Assembly (NCBI RefSeq): GCF_000392435.1
Contig: NC_021219.1
Location: forward strand, 240,001-272,000
Origin: Candidatus Saccharimonas aalborgensis
GTDB lineage: Bacteria; Patescibacteriota; Saccharimonadia; Saccharimonadales; Saccharimonadaceae
DNA length: 32,000 bases
Direction of reading: 5' to 3'
In this document: positions 1,419 through 19,869 of the stretch, one piece after another
Layout: each line of letters begins with the position of its first letter
Position numbering within the stretch: the first letter of the stretch is position 1
Notes under the pieces: generated by a model
Databases searched by the model: none
What the model was told of the DNA's origin: nothing
What the model saw: only the letters and a program-made list of their open reading frames with translations
Program-made: the position numbers and the translations under genes

Positions 1419-2024
1419 TTAGAACTGACTACTAAAGGCGCGTAAGTGGTTCTCGGAACCCCTACGAAGCCCCTCTAGGGTCAAGATAACGTCCTGATCA
1501 CTGGCAGTTTTGAGCTGAGCGTTGATATCTGCAATATCTTTTTCCTCGATTGCAATCCCGGCCTTATATGCCTGGATAACGCTTTTGCTACCTTGAGCGA
1601 TCAGTTGATTATACAGGGTCTGTAGTTCTTGATTACGAAATACTCCGAGTTCGGCCGACCGCGGATCAGCAACATTTCGCGCTTGGAGCAACGTCAGAAC
1701 TCGGCTTTGATGTGCCTGTTCGCTACTAAGTATGTTACCGAATACCCTAACTCCATAGAGCTCATACATCTTTGTGTAGACATCGTGTGCAAGCTTCTCT
1801 TCCTCAATAAGGTACAACAGGAGCGACTCTGTCGTGTCTTTGGTAGCAGAACCTTGTTCAATTGTAGAATCAAACGCATTGGAATTATTTGCTACCATGT
1901 TTGTTTGAATCTTATTCGTGGGAGAGGGCTCATACCGAATGGCGACACTATAACCTACTACACCCGCTAGTATCGTTATTGCTATAGCTATTATAGCGGT
2001 AATTGTTATTCGAAGTTGTGTCAT
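1419..2024 (-). CDS. membrane-anchored ferritin-like protein (DUF2202-like)
   Basis: An N-terminal TM segment is followed by a two-repeat ferritin-like pattern (LIEEEKLAHDVY...SSEQAHQSRV...IAIEEKDIADI...GSENHLRAF). I moved the start to ATG 2024, which has AAAGGA 6 nt upstream. The track ORF starts at 2054. Confidence 0.7.
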   Translation of the reverse strand: MTQLRITITAIIAIAITILAGVVGYSVAIRYEPSPTNKIQTNMVANNSNAFDSTIEQGSATKDTTESLLLYLIEEEKLAHDVYTKMYELYGVRVFGNILSSEQAHQSRVLTLLQARNVADPRSAELGVFRNQELQTLYNQLIAQGSKSVIQAYKAGIAIEEKDIADINAQLKTASDQDVILTLEGLRRGSENHLRAFSSQF

Positions 2025-4597: not shown

Positions 4598-4606
4598 GGT
4601 AGGACT

Positions 4607-4675
4607 ATGAACCATTCTAACGGTTCCTCTACTCGCAAATGTTGGGACGGTCCCAACCGCTCGCGGAATAATTAA
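4607..4675 (+). CDS. candidate 22-codon leader peptide (MNHSNGSSTRKCWDGPNRSRNN)
   Basis: The ATG lies 9 nt after the CATAAT box, which is the same leaderless geometry seen at other genes here. The ORF contains a 7-bp hairpin (4641-4657) and ends just before the hairpin at 4676-4688. There is no other support. Confidence 0.25.
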   Translation: MNHSNGSSTRKCWDGPNRSRNN

Positions 4676-4746: not shown

Positions 4747-6516
4747 ATGCAGGAACCAAAAGCCAATACCAAAGCTATCAAAAAAACGCTTCGCCTCTAC
4801 CTTAGTATCATCACGAGGGGTTGGCGCTATACCCTCTCTATTACCATCGCTGTTGCGCTGGGGAGTATTCTTATCTTTTATGTACCCCCTCTCATCATCG
4901 CGGCACTTTTACGACATACAGGCGATCTTCATTTTGAAGCGTTTTGGCCCTACGTCTTTTGGTTTGGCCTCGCGTGGCTGGTGGGTGAACTGTTCTGGCG
5001 CGTCGCCCTCCACTTGATGATCCGTTTTGAGATTAAAACCATTCGCACTCTCTATAAGGACGCGCTTGCTACTTTGCTCGAGAAAGATCTCCTGTTCTTT
5101 CATAACCGTTTTGCTGGCACCATCACAAAGAATACGCTTGCTTACGCACGACGATTTGAGGGATTTTTTGACACCATTGTATTTGAAGTGGTGTCGCAGT
5201 TGTTTCCCGCTATCTTTGCTGCCATTGTCTTATGGACTATCAGCCCGTGGTTATCGGTGACACTTATGATAATGATGTTGGTGGGCGTGGTAATCGTCAT
5301 CCCCCTTGTCACGCGCCGTATCAAACTTGTTCGCGATCGCGAGGATGCACATGCCACGATGTCTGGACATATTGCCGATGTTATCGCAAATGTTGCCGCA
5401 GTGAAGGCCTATGGTGCCGAACAAGATGAACACACGACTCACCGACATCATGTCGATTCATTTATAGAAAAGGCGGCCAAGAGTTGGCACTATCAAAATA
5501 ATCGAATCGACATGGCGATTTCACCACTTTATGTTGCAACAAATGTCGTGGGACTTTGGATCGTACTGAGTCTGGGGGTTGATGCATCCACAAAAGCGAA
5601 TCTTTTTATTGGCTACAGTTACTTTGCAACAGTGACGCGTTTCCTGTGGTCGTTCAATAGTGTGTACCGGCGTCTTGAAGAAGCGATTACTGAGGCTTCG
5701 CTCTTTACTGCATACCTGCTAGAGAAACCAAAAATTTCTGATGCAGCAGATGCAAAACCACTGAACGTTTCGGTTGGGAATATTGTGTTTGACGATGTTA
5801 CTTTCACACATTCAGAAAACCCAGATGCGCTATTTAGAGACTTTACCCTCACTATCGCGCCTGGCGAAAAAGTTGGCCTCGTCGGACCTTCGGGAGCAGG
5901 TAAGTCAACGTTTGTAGCGCTACTACTACGCTTTATGGACATCGATGCCGGTCGGATTACGATCGACGGACAAACTATTGCTGATGTTACCCAACAAAGC
6001 CTTCATAGAAGTATCGCCTATGTACCTCAGGAACCCGTCCTCTTTCATCGAACACTGCGCGAAAATATTGCCTACGGCAAACGGCACGCGAGTGATGCAG
6101 ACATTATTACTGCTGCGAAACAAGCCAATGCCTGGGACTTTATCGCACAACTTCCTCAAGGTCTTGATACCCTCGTTGGCGAACGTGGTGTGAAACTAAG
6201 TGGTGGTCAGCGGCAACGTATTGCTATTGCCCGCGCCATGCTGAAAGATGCACCAATTTTAGTACTAGACGAGGCGACATCTGCCCTCGACAGCGAGAGC
6301 GAGAAACTTATCCAGGCGAGCCTCGGCGACCTCATGAAAGATCGCACCAGTATCGTCATTGCTCATCGACTCTCCACGATTGCAAAGCTTGATCGTATCG
6401 TCGTCCTCGATCGCGGCACCATTGCTGAGAACGGAACGCATGGCGAATTACTACAGCAACATGGCATTTACGCAAAACTGTGGGCGCACCAGAGTGGCGG
6501 ATTTATCGAAGAATAG
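4747..6516 (+). CDS. ABC transporter, fused permease/ATPase (type I exporter, MsbA/multidrug-like)
   Basis: N-terminal 6-TM domain. Walker A GPSGAGKST, signature LSGGQRQR, Walker B ILVLDEATSALD. AAGGAG lies just upstream of the ATG. Confidence 0.95.
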   Translation: MQEPKANTKAIKKTLRLYLSIITRGWRYTLSITIAVALGSILIFYVPPLIIAALLRHTGDLHFEAFWPYVFWFGLAWLVGELFWRVALHLMIRFEIKTIRTLYKDALATLLEKDLLFFHNRFAGTITKNTLAYARRFEGFFDTIVFEVVSQLFPAIFAAIVLWTISPWLSVTLMIMMLVGVVIVIPLVTRRIKLVRDREDAHATMSGHIADVIANVAAVKAYGAEQDEHTTHRHHVDSFIEKAAKSWHYQNNRIDMAISPLYVATNVVGLWIVLSLGVDASTKANLFIGYSYFATVTRFLWSFNSVYRRLEEAITEASLFTAYLLEKPKISDAADAKPLNVSVGNIVFDDVTFTHSENPDALFRDFTLTIAPGEKVGLVGPSGAGKSTFVALLLRFMDIDAGRITIDGQTIADVTQQSLHRSIAYVPQEPVLFHRTLRENIAYGKRHASDADIITAAKQANAWDFIAQLPQGLDTLVGERGVKLSGGQRQRIAIARAMLKDAPILVLDEATSALDSESEKLIQASLGDLMKDRTSIVIAHRLSTIAKLDRIVVLDRGTIAENGTHGELLQQHGIYAKLWAHQSGGFIEE

Positions 6517-6567: not shown

Positions 6568-7278
6568 ATGAGTTACGAACCAATTATCCACACCGTTCAG
6601 GCAAGCATATTGCGGCAACTACTGTTTACACCACGGGCATCATTTGCTGACTTGCAAAAAGAGACAAATCTATCGAGCGATCATTTCACCTTTCACATAA
6701 AGAAACTTATCGAATCAGGCCTCATCGAAAAAAATGCCTCCCAGTATCAACTAACTCTCACCGGCAAAGAATATGCCAATCGTATGGACACTGATAGTCA
6801 TGTCATAGAGCGCCAACCAAAAGTTTCCACGCTACTGATTGTCGAGCGCACACTACCTGATGGCACCTACCAGTACCTTGTCCAACAGCGCCTCAAGCAA
6901 CCTTTTTATGGATTTTGGGGACTGTTTGGCGGAAAAGTCGGCTGGGGAGAATCATTTGAGGACACCGCTAGGCGTGAGCTTAAAGAGGAATCAGGTCTTG
7001 ACGGCACCTTTGTCTACAAATTTCTGCACCGAAAACGTGATTACAAAAAATCAGATAATTCCCTGCTTGAGGATAAAGTATTTGCCGTAATGTTCTGCGA
7101 TAATGCGAGTGGCACACTCAAAACTGAGTTTGAGGGAGGTCACAATGAATGGCTCACGATTGACTCATTACGAGCAAAGGACAACTATTTCTCAGATGCT
7201 CCACTCCTGCTTGAAATGGCGCATAGCCCTGAGCAGTATATTGCAAAAGACTATTTCTATACGAGCGAAGAATACTAG
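6568..7278 (+). CDS. winged-helix (MarR/ArsR-like) domain fused to a Nudix hydrolase domain
   Basis: The N-terminus ILRQLLFTPRASFADLQKETNLSSDHFTFHIKKLIESGLIEK looks like a wHTH. The Nudix box is GGKVGWGESFEDTARRELKEESGL. Confidence 0.85.
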   Translation: MSYEPIIHTVQASILRQLLFTPRASFADLQKETNLSSDHFTFHIKKLIESGLIEKNASQYQLTLTGKEYANRMDTDSHVIERQPKVSTLLIVERTLPDGTYQYLVQQRLKQPFYGFWGLFGGKVGWGESFEDTARRELKEESGLDGTFVYKFLHRKRDYKKSDNSLLEDKVFAVMFCDNASGTLKTEFEGGHNEWLTIDSLRAKDNYFSDAPLLLEMAHSPEQYIAKDYFYTSEEY

Positions 7279-10767: not shown

Positions 10768-11427
10768 ATGGAAGGATTCATCAATCTTATAACTGGCTTT
10801 GGGGTCTTCGCTATTCTTTTTGTGATATACGCGGAATCAGGGCTTCTGATCGGCTTTCTATTTCCTGGCGACAGCCTGCTTTTTATGTCGGGATTTCTCG
10901 TTCAACAGCAGACGCTGAATATCAACATTCATCTCTTTGTGTTTCTCCTTTTTCTCGCGGCAGCGCTGGGCGAGAGTACGGGCTATCTCTTTGGAAAAAA
11001 GGTGGGAAGAAAACTATTTGAGCGACCAAATACACGGTTCTTTCGCCGAGAAAACTTGGTTCGAACTGAGCAGTTTTACGAAAAACACGGTCCGATAGCC
11101 ATCGTGCTCGCCTGCTTTGTTCCGATCGTCCGAACGTTTGTGCCAATTGTTGCGGGTGTCAGCAAAATGAGCTATCGGCAATTTCTCCCCTACAACATAC
11201 TCGGAGCTGCACTCTGGACGGTGAGTTTCACCTACCTTGGCTACTTTGCGGGTGATTTGCTAAAAAAGATGGGGGTAAATGTCGAAATTGCAGCACTCAT
11301 CATCATCTTTCTCTCAATCTCGCCGATGCTCTACCACGCATTCAAAAGCCCCGAGCGCCGCAAAGGCTTGGTAGAAGGCACTAAGCGCGAAATCCGTATT
11401 TTACTACAACGAAATAGCAAGTCGTAA
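10768..11427 (+). CDS. dedA: DedA/VTT-domain family membrane protein
   Basis: Motifs LFPGDSLLFMSGFL and GYLFGKKVGRKLF, with multiple TM segments. Confidence 0.9.
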   Translation: MEGFINLITGFGVFAILFVIYAESGLLIGFLFPGDSLLFMSGFLVQQQTLNINIHLFVFLLFLAAALGESTGYLFGKKVGRKLFERPNTRFFRRENLVRTEQFYEKHGPIAIVLACFVPIVRTFVPIVAGVSKMSYRQFLPYNILGAALWTVSFTYLGYFAGDLLKKMGVNVEIAALIIIFLSISPMLYHAFKSPERRKGLVEGTKREIRILLQRNSKS

Positions 11428-11431
11428 GACA

Positions 11432-11440
11432 TGCTATAGT
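11432..11440 (+). promoter_or_regulatory. candidate extended -10 promoter (TGcTATAGT) placed 7 nt before the first base of the rRNA-like hairpin
   Basis: TG 11432-11433, TATAGT 11435-11440. The helix starts at G11448. I found no good -35 element. Confidence 0.4.
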
Positions 11441-11447
11441 ATTCTTG

Positions 11448-11544
11448 GTCCCGCGACGACACATTGACAGCCTGGCGCTCATCTTAGAAGCGATGACCGA
11501 TAATGGTGCGTAATAGCTCACTGGCCGAGTGTCTGTCGCGGGAC
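11448..11544 (+). ncRNA. orphan 23S rRNA helix 42-44 (GTPase-associated centre) copy or mimic
   Basis: GACAGCC-TGG...CTTAGAAGC...GCGTAATAGCTCACTGG-CCGAGTG matches, from my memory, E. coli 23S nt ~1045-1115. Both the A1067 and A1095 loops are intact. The H43-equivalent stem has a different sequence but still pairs. A 15-bp closing helix with one bulge (11448-11462 with 11529-11544) encloses it. It lies in the 125-nt gap between the convergent dedA and uvrA genes. Confidence 0.6.
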
Positions 11545-11552
11545 GCTCAACA

Positions 11553-14363
11553 CTACAGCATTTTTTTGAGATATTTCCCCGTAAAACTGGCGGGGATTTT
11601 TGCTATCTCTTCGGGGGTGCCCTGCGCTACAATTGTACCACCCCCTTGACCGCCCTCTGGACCAAGGTCAACGATGTGGTCGGCACATTTTATCACCTCG
11701 AGATTGTGTTCGATAATGATCATTGTGTTACCACCCTCCACCAGTTTCTGCAAAATTTCAAGTAACTTTTTGACATCGTGGGTATGGAGACCGGTCGTTG
11801 GTTCATCGAGAATATAGAGTGTTTTGCCAGTACTGCGCCGACTCAGCTCGCTGGCGAGCTTGATACGCTGTGCTTCACCACCACTAAAGGTTGTGGCTGG
11901 CTGACCCAGTTTGATATAGCCGAGGCCTACCTCATTGAGCGTATCGAGTTTACGCGCGATCGAGGGTACATTGGCAAAAAACTCACAGGCTTGTTCGACT
12001 GTCATATCCAGAACATCACTGATTGTCACACCCTTATATTTTATTTCGAGCGCTTCACGGTTGTAGCGCTTGCCTTTACACTCATCACACGTTACATAGA
12101 CATCAGGAAGGAAGTGCATCTCGATCTTGATAACTCCGTCACCCTGACAATTTTCACACCGACCACCTTTGACATTGAAACTAAATCGCCCTGCTTTGTA
12201 GCCGCGAATATTGGCCTCGGGGGTACCGGCAAACAATTCACGGATTGGCGTAAATACGCCGGTATACGTCGCTGGGTTTGACCTCGGCGTACGACCAATA
12301 GCTGACTGGTCAATCACTATCGCTTTATCGAGATGCTCGATCCCCTCAATATTCTCATGTGCACCCGGAACTTCCTGCGCACGGTGAAGTCGCGCCGATA
12401 ATTCTTTGGCCAAAATATCATTGACTAGCGTCGACTTACCGCTTCCGCTTACTCCTGTCACGACCGTCAAAATACCCAGAGGAAATACGACGTCAAGATT
12501 TTTGAGATTGTTTTCTTTTGCGCCCCTGATGGTAACTGCTCGATCTTTCTGGAGCTTACGGCGCGTGCGCGGCAAGGGAATCGTTTCTTTGCCTGAAAGA
12601 TACTTCCCGGTGATACTTGCTGGATTCTCGGCAACCTCTTTTGGTGTTCCATGAGCCACAATCTGCCCGCCATGCACGCCAGCACCCGGCCCAACATCGA
12701 CGAGATAATCAGCGTGGCGAATCGTGTCTTCATCGTGTTCGACAACAAGTACCGAGTTACCGAGGTCACGCAAATGCTTGAGCGTGCCGATCAGTCGATC
12801 ATTATCGCGCTGGTGCAGTCCGATTGACGGCTCATCAAGTACATAAAGTACTCCTTGTAACCCAGAGCCTATCTGTGTCGCTAGGCGAATACGCTGCGCT
12901 TCGCCACCGCTGAGAGTGTTTGCAGCACGTGATAATTCGAGGTAACTCAGGCCAACATTACTCATAAAGCCCAGACGCGCCATGATCTCTTTGAGAATCA
13001 GCTTTGCTATCACCATTTCATCGTCAGTAAGCTTCAACGCATTAAACAGATCAATCGCATCGTCAACACCTAGATTGCAGATATCCATGATAGATAAGTC
13101 ATGTACTGTCACCGCGAGCACCACCGGTTTGAGACGAGCTCCGTGGCAGGCATGACATTCACGCTCACGCATGAACCGTTCGATGTCTTTACGCATAAAC
13201 TCGCTCTCGGTTTCTTTGTGCCGCCGCTCAAGATTCGGGATAACACCCTCGTAGGTACTATCGTAATAGCGACCACCATTCAAAGTGATTCGATATTTTT
13301 GACTCCCCGTCCCATACAAGACTTTTTGCAAATCGTCAGGATGAAGTTGTTTCACCGGCACCTGCACGCTAAACCCATGCGCTTCAGCGACTGTTGCGAG
13401 GCGTTTCATATACCAAGCATCGCTATTGACTCGGTTATACGGCCGGATGGCTCCCTCGGCAATGGTGAGATTGGGGTTAAATACAAGATCAGGATCTATC
13501 TCTAGTCGACTCCCCAGCCCCGTACAAACCGGACAAGCGCCTTGTGGTGCATTAAAACTAAATAGTCGTGGTTCCAACTCAGGTATATCCTCACCGGGAT
13601 GGTCGATACAGGCATAGCGTTGGCTAAATGTATGCAGTGTATCACTATCGGCATCGAGCAACTGCACTACACCTCCTGCGATATCAAGCGCTTGTTCGGT
13701 CGACTGCGTGACTCGACTCACGGCATCCTGACGAAGCACTAGTCGATCAACAACTACTTCAATATCGTGCTTGAAGCTTTTTTGTAGTTCTGGAAACTCG
13801 TCGAGCGCATACACAACACCGTCAACACGTACTCTTGCAAATCCGAGGCGTCGATACTGCTCAGGAATATGAGCGAACTCACCTTTTTTTTGATTTACGA
13901 TAGGAGCCAGTATCAGCAATTTACTTCCCTCAGGAAGTTTCATAATTTCATCAATAATTGCCTGAGGGGTACGACGATGAACCGCTTTGGCACAAACAGG
14001 ACAGTGCGGTACGCCAATACGAGCATAAAGCAAACGCAGGTAGTCATAGATTTCAGTAACGGTCGCAACGGTACTGCGCGGATTACGGCTCGTCGACTTT
14101 TGGTCTATCGAAATAGCTGGGCTGAGACCATCGATACTATCGACATCTGGTTTGTCCATAATCCCAAGAAATTGTCTCGCGTAGCTACTCAATGACTCAA
14201 CATAGCGACGCTGACCTTCAGCGTAGATAGTGTCAAAGACAAGCGAGGATTTACCGCTCCCGCTCAAACCAGTTACTACCACCAACTGATCTCGAGGAAT
14301 CTCCACGTCGACATTCTTCAGATTATGTTCTCTCGCACCACGAACACGAATTACTTCTGACAT
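11553..14363 (-). CDS. uvrA: excinuclease ABC subunit A
   Basis: 936 aa with two ABC ATPase modules (GLSGSGKSS and GVSGSGKST; LSGGEAQR twice) and Cys4 zinc modules. Confidence 0.98.
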
Positions 14364-19648: not shown

Positions 19649-19761
19649 TCGTTGATTACGAATAACGATTCTCCTGTGAAACCATTGCTGGAATCACGTC
19701 TACCCCACTCTGTCTTTCTCCTCTCGCAAGGGAGGACTGGCGCGCGCGTGTCGACCGATGT

Positions 19762-19773
19762 TATCAATTGATA
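19762..19773. promoter_or_regulatory. perfect 12-bp palindrome TATCAATTGATA in the hydrolase leader, a possible operator
   Basis: The sequence equals its own reverse complement. It lies about 90-100 nt downstream of the predicted TSS. Confidence 0.3.
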
Positions 19774-19869
19774 TTAGTAAAATCTTTGCTTATTTCGGCG
19801 GCCGTTCGACATTTAAAGGTAAGCAGTACCGTGTTATACATCCGTACACTGGACGATACGTGCTCCACC

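Follow-up and report, generated by a model that had tools for sequence, protein, structure and literature searches.

In the 32,000-nt window analysed here (Candidatus Saccharimonas aalborgensis, contig NC_021219.1, positions 240,001 to 272,000; all coordinates below are positions in this window, on the plus strand unless stated otherwise), a gene encoding a dedA-like membrane protein with a VTT domain (10768-11427; Pfam VTT_dom, E 2.6e-21) converges with uvrA on the minus strand (11553-14363; Pfam UvrA_inter and UvrA_DNA-bind). The encoded DedA protein and AGL61958.1 of Candidatus Saccharimonas aalborgensis have the same sequence. The spacer between both genes comprises 125 nt (11428-11552) and contains an element of 97 nt (11448-11544), which mimics helices H42-H44 of 23S rRNA, the arm forming the GTPase-associated centre (GAC), and which is recognised by the Rfam large subunit (LSU) rRNA model, by a covariance model of our own and in the minimum free energy (MFE) fold. 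An orphan H42-H44-like segment between dedA and uvrA had been proposed in a first-pass annotation made from the sequence alone, and the two models bear this proposal out.

In a permissive scan of the spacer, Rfam LSU_rRNA_bacteria aligned to 11450-11541 on the plus strand with its positions 1072-1164, that is, with H42-H44 (35.9 bits, E 1.1e-9); the consensus pairing of the model is largely formed in this alignment, and the score of the 92-nt local match lies below the Rfam gathering score of 50 for this family (RF02541). No family besides LSU matched the spacer at E<=10, and the L10_leader model, for which the first-pass annotation had suggested a search, gave no match at this threshold. Our own covariance model, built on 11 real GAC arms (TM7, that is, Saccharibacteria, Enterobacteria, Paenibacillus and two other bacteria) with the Rfam pairing, assigns 47 bits (E 8e-10) to the element, its sole match in the window with filters switched off, while real GACs reach 101-119 bits. 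In the MFE fold of the plus strand the long lower helix and the H43 and H44 hairpins are reproduced (-43.4 kcal/mol). The element shares with the 23S GAC arm (RF02541 positions 1072-1164; E. coli ~1030-1124) the three-way junction of H42, H43 and H44, the kink-turn 42 loop, the UAA, the UUAGAAGC loop of the 1067 region and a complete H44 hairpin with the 1095 loop; in contrast to that arm, it lies outside any rRNA gene. As had been noted before, no rRNA operon is nearby: an Rfam scan of the window found no rRNA gene, the only matches at gathering level being lysM-TM7 and MDR-NUDIX, both Saccharibacteria motifs, and the only ribosomal-protein gene near the element is that of L25, on the other strand.

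The lower stem of H42 is a helix of 15 bp, in which 11448-11462 pairs with 11529-11544 and U11534 is bulged, exactly as previously described; every pair is of Watson-Crick type, and the 3' strand is supported by the fold as well as by our own model. It is followed by kink-turn 42, whose 5' strand AUUGACA (11463-11469) pairs with CGA(G) at 11526-11529; the core of this motif, GACA/CGAG (11466-11469/11526-11529), is of the general bacterial type, whereas the TM7 type reads AAACA/CAAG. The H43 equivalent CGCUCAUC-UUAGAAGC-GAUGACCG (11476-11499) has a re-coded stem and a retained loop. In the junction AUAAU (11500-11504) the UAA (11501-11503) is kept, and the closing pair U1082-A1086 is flipped to A-U. 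The H44 equivalent GGUGC-GUAAUA-GCUC occupies 11505-11519. The equivalents of A1067 (11486) and A1095 (11512) are both present.

Comparison with the 11 real GACs revealed that 41 of the 60 columns invariant among them are retained, and that the losses are distributed very unevenly. All invariant columns are kept in the kink-turn loop (5/5) and in the 1095 loop (5/5), nearly all in the 1067 loop (8/9, A1073 being deleted), in the H44 stem (7/8, A1088 being deleted) and in the H42 lower stem (5/6), but only 2/4 in the junction and 4/14 in the H43 stem, which reads GUUGGC...GCCA in real GACs; the H43 stem differs from the remaining regions with a Fisher p of 6e-4. The earlier statement that both functional loops are intact is thus correct for the 1095 loop, but not for the 1067 loop. 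The alignment agrees with the first-pass annotation on the U instead of A at the 1054 equivalent and on the missing A1073, whereas the absence of A1088 had escaped notice. The E. coli sequence 1051-1108, which that annotation had used for its comparison, is 100% correct in the 23S rRNA of 5426/5426 complete E. coli genomes.

Despite these changes, pairing is preserved: 24 of 26 pairs are canonical in the element, although 11 pairs are altered on both sides. In the H43 stem, which had been suspected to be re-coded and still paired, fold and alignment agree with this view, six of seven pairs being canonical and five of the seven being double changes that still pair. The pairs A1054-U1105 and G1059-C1079 are broken. 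No G-U pair occurs in the element, three conserved G.U pairs of the real H42 having become G-C or C-G, and for this reason the reverse complement folds equally well. The identity between the element and any real GAC, TM7 included, amounts to 51-59%, while real GACs of different phyla share at least 70%; the best natural match, obtained by BLAST against a plasmid collection, is 75% over 70 nt with a Deinococcus 23S. Judged from these alignments, uniform neutral decay of an rRNA fragment cannot yield such an uneven divergence. The element looks like an RNA with constrained loops and architecture, whose helices were free to change; the alternative would be a process acting on helices at the DNA level.

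To obtain the resident counterpart, TM7 rRNA loci were gathered by a metagenome scan with a TM7-specific 16S signature, the target of probe TM7905; the loci recovered indeed are rRNA operons flanked by gyrA named Saccharibacteria. A canonical H42-H44 is present in all 22 Saccharibacteria 23S genes reaching that region, is near-invariant (...CUUAAACAGCUAGGAUGUUGGCUUAGAAGCAGCCAUUCAUUUAAAGAGUGCGUAACAGCUCACUAGUCAAGAG...) and scores 115-119 bits in our GAC model. The inference on the resident rRNA rests on these 22 genes, none of which is attributable to S. aalborgensis itself; in two of them (loci L098 and L199) the composition matches the window as well as the window halves match each other, but there is no synteny with the window. 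With the 22 TM7 GACs the element is 51-58% identical, and it differs from them in the whole H42 lower stem, in the type of kink-turn, in the entire H43 stem and in the junction. A recent duplicate of the resident 23S is excluded by these differences in H42 stem, kink-turn type, H43 stem and junction, and the suggestion of a decaying copy of the resident rRNA fails in the form in which it had been made, given the low identity to real GACs and the strongly uneven divergence. Our alignments show that the element derives from an LSU H42-H44 sequence other than the resident TM7 23S.

Several features of the Saccharibacteria rRNA genes emerged from the same collection. Their kink-turn 42 is non-canonical, with both G of the tandem G.A pairs being A (UUAAACA/CAAGAG) in 21 of the 22 sequences (for example, L098 7232-7328); the exception is L193 with GGACA on the 5' strand. 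In the H44 loop, position 1097 is C in most TM7. In 54 Saccharibacteria loci (L098 66-2591 and 53 others, L098-L216) the 16S gene is directly preceded by gyrA, with a probable gyrB before and an ORF (open reading frame) of ~144 aa after it, and this gyrA-16S order is a strongly conserved neighbourhood of the rRNA operon. In L102 (16S signature at 4939, GAC at 11692) the distance from 16S position ~905 to 23S H43 amounts to 6.75 kb compared to 2.7-3.2 kb in other TM7 loci, which suggests that its rRNA genes hold large insertions or introns, and L218 contains an AT-rich insertion of ~55 nt past 23S position ~1200.

The same spacer is found in three closed genomes (CP065015.1, CP065017.1, CP064959.1) and in over 10 assemblies made independently (ENA, Logan, NCBI), where it varies by two single-nucleotide polymorphisms (SNPs) only. 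One of them, G>A at 11447, adjoins the helix on the outside; the other, C>T at 11491, changes the C1072 equivalent. An assembly chimera, which the first-pass annotation had named as a possible refutation, is excluded by these closed genomes and independent assemblies, and the element does not match the TM7 23S copies. The order of the convergent dedA and uvrA genes is conserved across Saccharibacteria, with a spacer of 0-35 nt in most lineages among the matches listed, and nothing GAC-like occurs in the dedA/uvrA spacer of 20+ other Saccharibacteria lineages. In the closest other species (UBA669, UvrA ~90% identical) the spacer of 175 nt is unrelated (L012 4664-4840), with a CCTACAGTATACC box and a hairpin CCCCCUC...GAGGGGG, and does not match our GAC model. 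The possibility of a miniature inverted-repeat transposable element (MITE) or another repeat was rejected: the element occurs once only, as far as the window, 238 loci and 671 kb of TM7 DNA show, and the possible direct repeats CTATAGTA and CTACAGCA stand 6-8 nt off the inverted arms instead of abutting them as a MITE would need.

Within S. aalborgensis the junction is polymorphic, with four allele types. The GAC-like allele, containing the element, was found in L001-L010 and L221-L229, with flanks 96-100% identical to the window. The Cys-peptide allele (L092 and L093; flanks 99.4% identical left of ~11350 and 96.4% right of ~11564) contains a promoter-like box, a ribosome-binding site (RBS), a Cys-rich ORF of 42 aa and a terminator, and in L091 and L094 it additionally holds an insertion sequence (IS). 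In the empty-site allele (L231-L236; flanks 97.3% and 96.6%) the two stop codons stand 1 nt apart (L231 2157-2159). A degraded allele (L230; flanks ~98%, 24.5 bits) contains a GAC-like element with 13 additional nt after the 1067 loop and with nucleotides missing from the 3' strand of H44 and the H42 top.

As to the details of these alleles, the Cys-peptide allele (L092 6655-6898, ORF 6728-6856 on the plus strand; also L093, L091 and L094) encodes the 42-aa peptide MQFKTFGPLGDEEEDACGCWCATCCGNEGLHCQNRERGCDER behind a TATAAT-like box and a GGAGG RBS and ends in a terminator. This peptide was considered as a precursor of a thiopeptide or another ribosomally synthesised and post-translationally modified peptide and rejected, as it has no NCBIfam match and no Ser. 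The IS in L091 (6903-7991; likewise in L094) encodes a DDE transposase (Pfam DDE_5/DDE_Tnp_1), is bordered by the terminal inverted repeats CACGCATTTCGCACTTT and sits at TCTAGA beside the uvrA stop. A poly-G run of ~55 nt directly upstream of the degraded variant (L230 4186-4240; GCA_964267585.1) is probably an assembly or sequencing artefact, lowering the trust in this variant.

The last ~32 codons of dedA (from ~11330) are allele-specific, the identity to other alleles of the same species breaking at 11330-11350; each allele comes with its own DedA C-terminal tail, and whole cassettes are therefore exchanged. Loci L254, L255 and L256, whose DedA tail is the most similar, have other small genes in this slot, all oriented like dedA: a lipoprotein-like ORF (L254 2221-2919), a small membrane ORF (L255 2179-2435) and an ORF of 229 aa without a Pfam match (L256 2723-3412). 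The cassettes of L254 and L255 have their own promoters of the TTGCAT-17-TATAAT type. These loci mark the dedA/uvrA junction of Saccharimonas as a hotspot for cassettes. The element inserted there has been seen in one species only and is dispensable, as strains of this species exist that lack it. Since the flanks are 96-99% identical between alleles, the divergence from rRNA cannot have arisen in place, and the element must have arrived already diverged.

Regarding expression, a box resembling an extended -10 element (TGcTATAGT, 11432-11440) lies 7 nt upstream of the helix, whose first base is G11448, and is the only TGNTATAGT in the window. The first-pass annotation had taken it for such a promoter element; the sequence is there, but its promoter role is uncertain, as it resembles a duplicated uvrA terminus (CTACAGTA; the empty-site allele reads CTACAGTAAATTTTTGAG at the uvrA stop). 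A promoter scan requiring a -35 hexamer did not call this box, no -35 being present. An intrinsic-terminator-like hairpin followed by a T-run (ATTTTTG) was detected by the terminator scan at 11576-11603 on the plus strand, inside the 3' part of the uvrA coding sequence; both strands of its stem change in concert between alleles and species (TCCCCG/CGGGGA, TCCCAG/CTGGGA, TACCCG/CGGGTA), and it is probably the terminator of dedA and the end of plus-strand transcripts, including any spacer RNA. The two genes, dedA and uvrA, ancestrally abut. If this hairpin terminates dedA, the element would be at least part of the dedA 3' untranslated region (UTR). The element is probably transcribed on the plus strand. 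At the element itself no intrinsic terminator was called on either strand, and the nearest T-run begins 19 nt past the helix.

The two Rfam motifs of the window lie at a distance from the element. MDR-NUDIX (4604-4666, plus strand, 69.5 bits), upstream of NUDIX/ABC genes, starts 6 nt downstream of TTGCAA-17-CATAAT, which shows that TM7 uses promoters of the sigma-70 type and serves as a promoter reference for this organism; lysM-TM7 (19671-19824, minus strand, 92.3 bits) is situated upstream of LysM/CHAP genes.

Which ligand could such an arm bind? L10(L12)4 is documented to recognise a kink-turn together with an unpaired UAA, in 23S rRNA as well as in the rplJL leader (PMC4538822), and the element has both. 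Binding of the L10 stalk is therefore possible, and the L10(L12)n stalk complex is, judged by sequence features, the only known ligand for which all documented determinants are found. In the 58-nt GAC domain, A1073, A1088, the H43 stem and the U1082-A1086 pair hold the compact tertiary fold that L11 and thiostrepton require. In the element neither U1060-A1088 nor U1065-A1073 can form, U1082-A1086 is not in its native orientation and the native H43 stem is missing; with A1088, A1073 and this stem lost, the element is unlikely to bind L11 in the native way or to adopt the compact fold needed by thiostrepton. Of the protein-titrating mimic proposed at first, the part concerning the L10 stalk hence stays possible, while the part concerning L11, as well as the idea of a thiopeptide decoy, is weakened; for the toxin decoy, likewise proposed at first, the data speak neither for nor against. 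Such a GAC-directed toxin is a further candidate: Tre23, delivered by the type VI secretion system, ADP-ribosylates H44 at 1095-1098 (PMC8661411). H44 is the best-preserved part of the element.

Among the closest known systems is the rplJL (L10) leader of E. coli and B. subtilis, likewise a non-rRNA transcript mimicking the H42-H44 arm, which shares the kink-turn and the UAA with the element. Unlike this leader, the element is not situated upstream of rplJL or any other ribosomal-protein gene, is strain-variable and copies two loops (1067 and 1095) that are not required in L10 leaders. Orphan or partial rRNA fragments resemble it in being isolated LSU-like pieces outside rRNA operons. One such piece came to light on a phage-like contig with DNA polymerase-like and MazG-like genes (L217 ~1749-1822, plus strand; IMGVR_UViG_2721755776_000002): an isolated canonical GAC fragment (H42 top-H43-H44; 88 bits in our own model) in AT-rich non-rRNA flanks, directly upstream of GAGGUGAUAUUAUG and a hydrophobic ORF of ~57 aa, and not picked up by Rfam in a 14-kb search. 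This fragment is canonical (UUGGC/GCCA stem, A1073 and A1088 present), whereas the element of the window is selectively re-coded, unlike ordinary debris. Expressed rRNA fragments have reportedly served as ligand decoys in the laboratory, and the concept that such decoys and Tre23 would share with the element is competition for a ligand by an RNA that copies its site on the ribosome. A literature search yielded no description of a natural chromosomal GAC decoy, and neither Rfam nor the literature searched describes a member of this kind. To our knowledge, nearly all known RNAs that mimic ribosomal sites are leaders of ribosomal-protein operons.

The explanation we favour, tentatively and with somewhat less than even confidence, is that of an imported accessory mimic of the GAC arm, shaped by selection and probably transcribed on the plus strand, with a presumed role as decoy or sponge. 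A small accessory cassette, encoding a stand-alone, re-coded version of the 23S H42-H44 arm, would have been acquired horizontally into the dedA/uvrA junction of the wastewater bacterium S. aalborgensis; it came already diverged, together with an allele-specific dedA tail, into a slot that elsewhere holds other small promoter-bearing cassettes. Transcription might start at G11448 from its own extended -10 element, or the RNA might be part of the dedA 3' UTR, and the transcript would end at the terminator embedded in uvrA, at about 11603. The three-way junction would display the stalk-base face (kink-turn and UAA) and the two hairpin loops of the GAC, while the tertiary core bound by the C-terminal domain (CTD) of L11 would be unable to form with A1088, A1073 and the invariant H43 stem gone. 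Such an RNA could act as a dispensable decoy or sponge for a ligand recognising the arm, either in S. aalborgensis or formerly in the donor; the main alternative to L10(L12)n as ligand would be a GAC-directed toxin, e.g. a Tre23-like ADP-ribosyltransferase.

A number of observations weigh against this explanation. Segregating sites in the element are few (1/97 compared to 17.8% of the four-fold sites in the flanking genes, in loci chosen by their identical DedA), but the valley of low diversity is regional (10,900-11,600), includes synonymous dedA sites and is not specific to the element. The sole SNP inside it (11491) falls on the equivalent of the universally conserved C1072, and the degraded version of L230, with its insertion in the 1067 loop, damaged H42 top and low score, together with this SNP argues against strict present-day constraint on GAC-likeness, as far as can be judged from these variants. 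Empty-site strains do without the element. The kink-turn follows the general bacterial pattern and is therefore not adapted to the resident L10; the -10 box may have been left behind by a duplication of the target or the uvrA terminus; and as both strands fold equally well, the structure gives no strand signal. In addition, no other copy or family member was found in the loci and TM7 DNA searched, nor in viral contigs, phages and plasmids: exact and degenerate pattern scans of viral contigs gave chance matches only, BLAST against phages gave only H44-block matches to contaminating rRNA, and phage Pd_22F contains a whole 23S gene and not a fragment. Only one lineage carries the element, which leaves no homologues on which its pairing could show covariation.

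Almost as likely as the favoured explanation is that the element is an inert relic or no more than a hairpin. A piece derived from foreign rDNA would then have been caught in an insertion hotspot and have no present GAC function; as a very stable, strand-symmetric hairpin belonging to the 3' UTRs of both dedA and uvrA, it may impede 3' exonucleases or stop transcription from running through, its perfect stems stemming from quasipalindrome correction (template switching) at the DNA level and not from selection on RNA. We consider this a serious possibility, well below an even chance by itself. It accords with the presence/absence polymorphism in one species and the absence from all other Saccharibacteria examined, with an L230 variant that retains the lower stem and loses the GAC features, with a SNP on an invariant loop nucleotide and with the regional extent of the diversity valley; the exclusive Watson-Crick pairing with conversion of the three conserved H42 G.U pairs, the equal folding of the strands and the loss of two universally conserved adenines point in the same direction. 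However, neutral decay cannot spare about 33 of the 35 invariant positions in the loops, the kink-turn and H44 while replacing 10 of the 14 invariant positions of the H43 stem, and the near-identity of the flanks leaves no time for divergence in place. A hairpin of use in 3' ends is also difficult to reconcile with the ancestral arrangement and the many strains doing without it, and with no T-run following on either strand it is not a terminator.

More far-reaching, and in our opinion doubtful, is the view that the element represents an undescribed class of trans-encoded, horizontally mobile decoy RNAs mimicking the GAC arm, an accessory 'immunity' cassette whose RNA would titrate a GAC-directed ligand; candidates for this ligand are the L10 stalk complex and interbacterial toxins, for instance a Tre23-like ADP-ribosyltransferase. 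In an epibiotic bacterium of the Candidate Phyla Radiation, which contacts other bacteria, such an RNA would show the stalk-base kink-turn and UAA together with the 1067 and 1095 loops, whereas the L11-binding core would be deliberately absent. Under this view, the re-coded helices would point to prolonged selection in a donor not yet sampled, and hence to a wider family.

We regard it as improbable that the element is a full functional GAC mimic, titrating L11 or sequestering thiopeptides of the thiostrepton or micrococcin class. Both loop sequences and the equivalents of A1067 and A1095 are present, and the real TM7 GAC likewise has A1067 and A1095, from which TM7 ribosomes are predicted to be thiopeptide-sensitive; but A1088, which pairs with U1060 in the contact with the L11-CTD (PMC2175356), is deleted like A1073, the invariant H43 stem bound by L11 is replaced and U1082-A1086 is flipped. 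On quantitative grounds, moreover, it is implausible that an antibiotic is countered by an RNA decoy that has to match it in stoichiometry.

Similarly small is the chance that the functional transcript is that of the minus strand, either as a hairpin in the uvrA 3' UTR or as an antisense RNA to the GAC loops of 23S. The hairpin begins 9 nt past the stop codon of uvrA, and its fold is slightly more stable on the minus strand (-46.0 kcal/mol, z -3.0). Continuous complementarity to TM7 23S is, however, limited to a loop segment of 9 nt (CUUAGAAGC) and an H44 block of ~16 nt (GUGCGUAAUAGCUCAC), the latter with one mismatch in most TM7 (the C at the 1097 position); moreover, the minus strand has no terminator tail, and the retention of kink-turn and junction would stay unexplained. 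A trans-encoded piece of a fragmented 23S rRNA, as proposed in the first-pass annotation, or an assembly chimera can practically be dismissed, for sequence resemblance alone speaks in their favour, while the 22 recovered TM7 23S genes have their own H42-H44, strains of the same species carry empty-site and other alleles instead, and three closed genomes as well as many independent assemblies agree on the sequence of the element.

If the favoured explanation is correct, a free-standing, near-complete mimic of the GAC arm, unlinked to ribosomal genes and strain-variable, would constitute a new use of rRNA mimicry, either as a decoy protecting the factor-binding site of the ribosome or by titration of the stalk. 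The element is open to direct test, being an RNA of 97 nt with known candidate ligands and with natural strains that have or lack it. As a strain-variable insertion in a cassette hotspot of one species, it could have an accessory function at most. An inert element would still document that cassettes are gathered at the dedA/uvrA junction of Saccharimonas as a hotspot, and the persistence of an rRNA-derived sequence with re-coded helices and intact loops would need to be explained.

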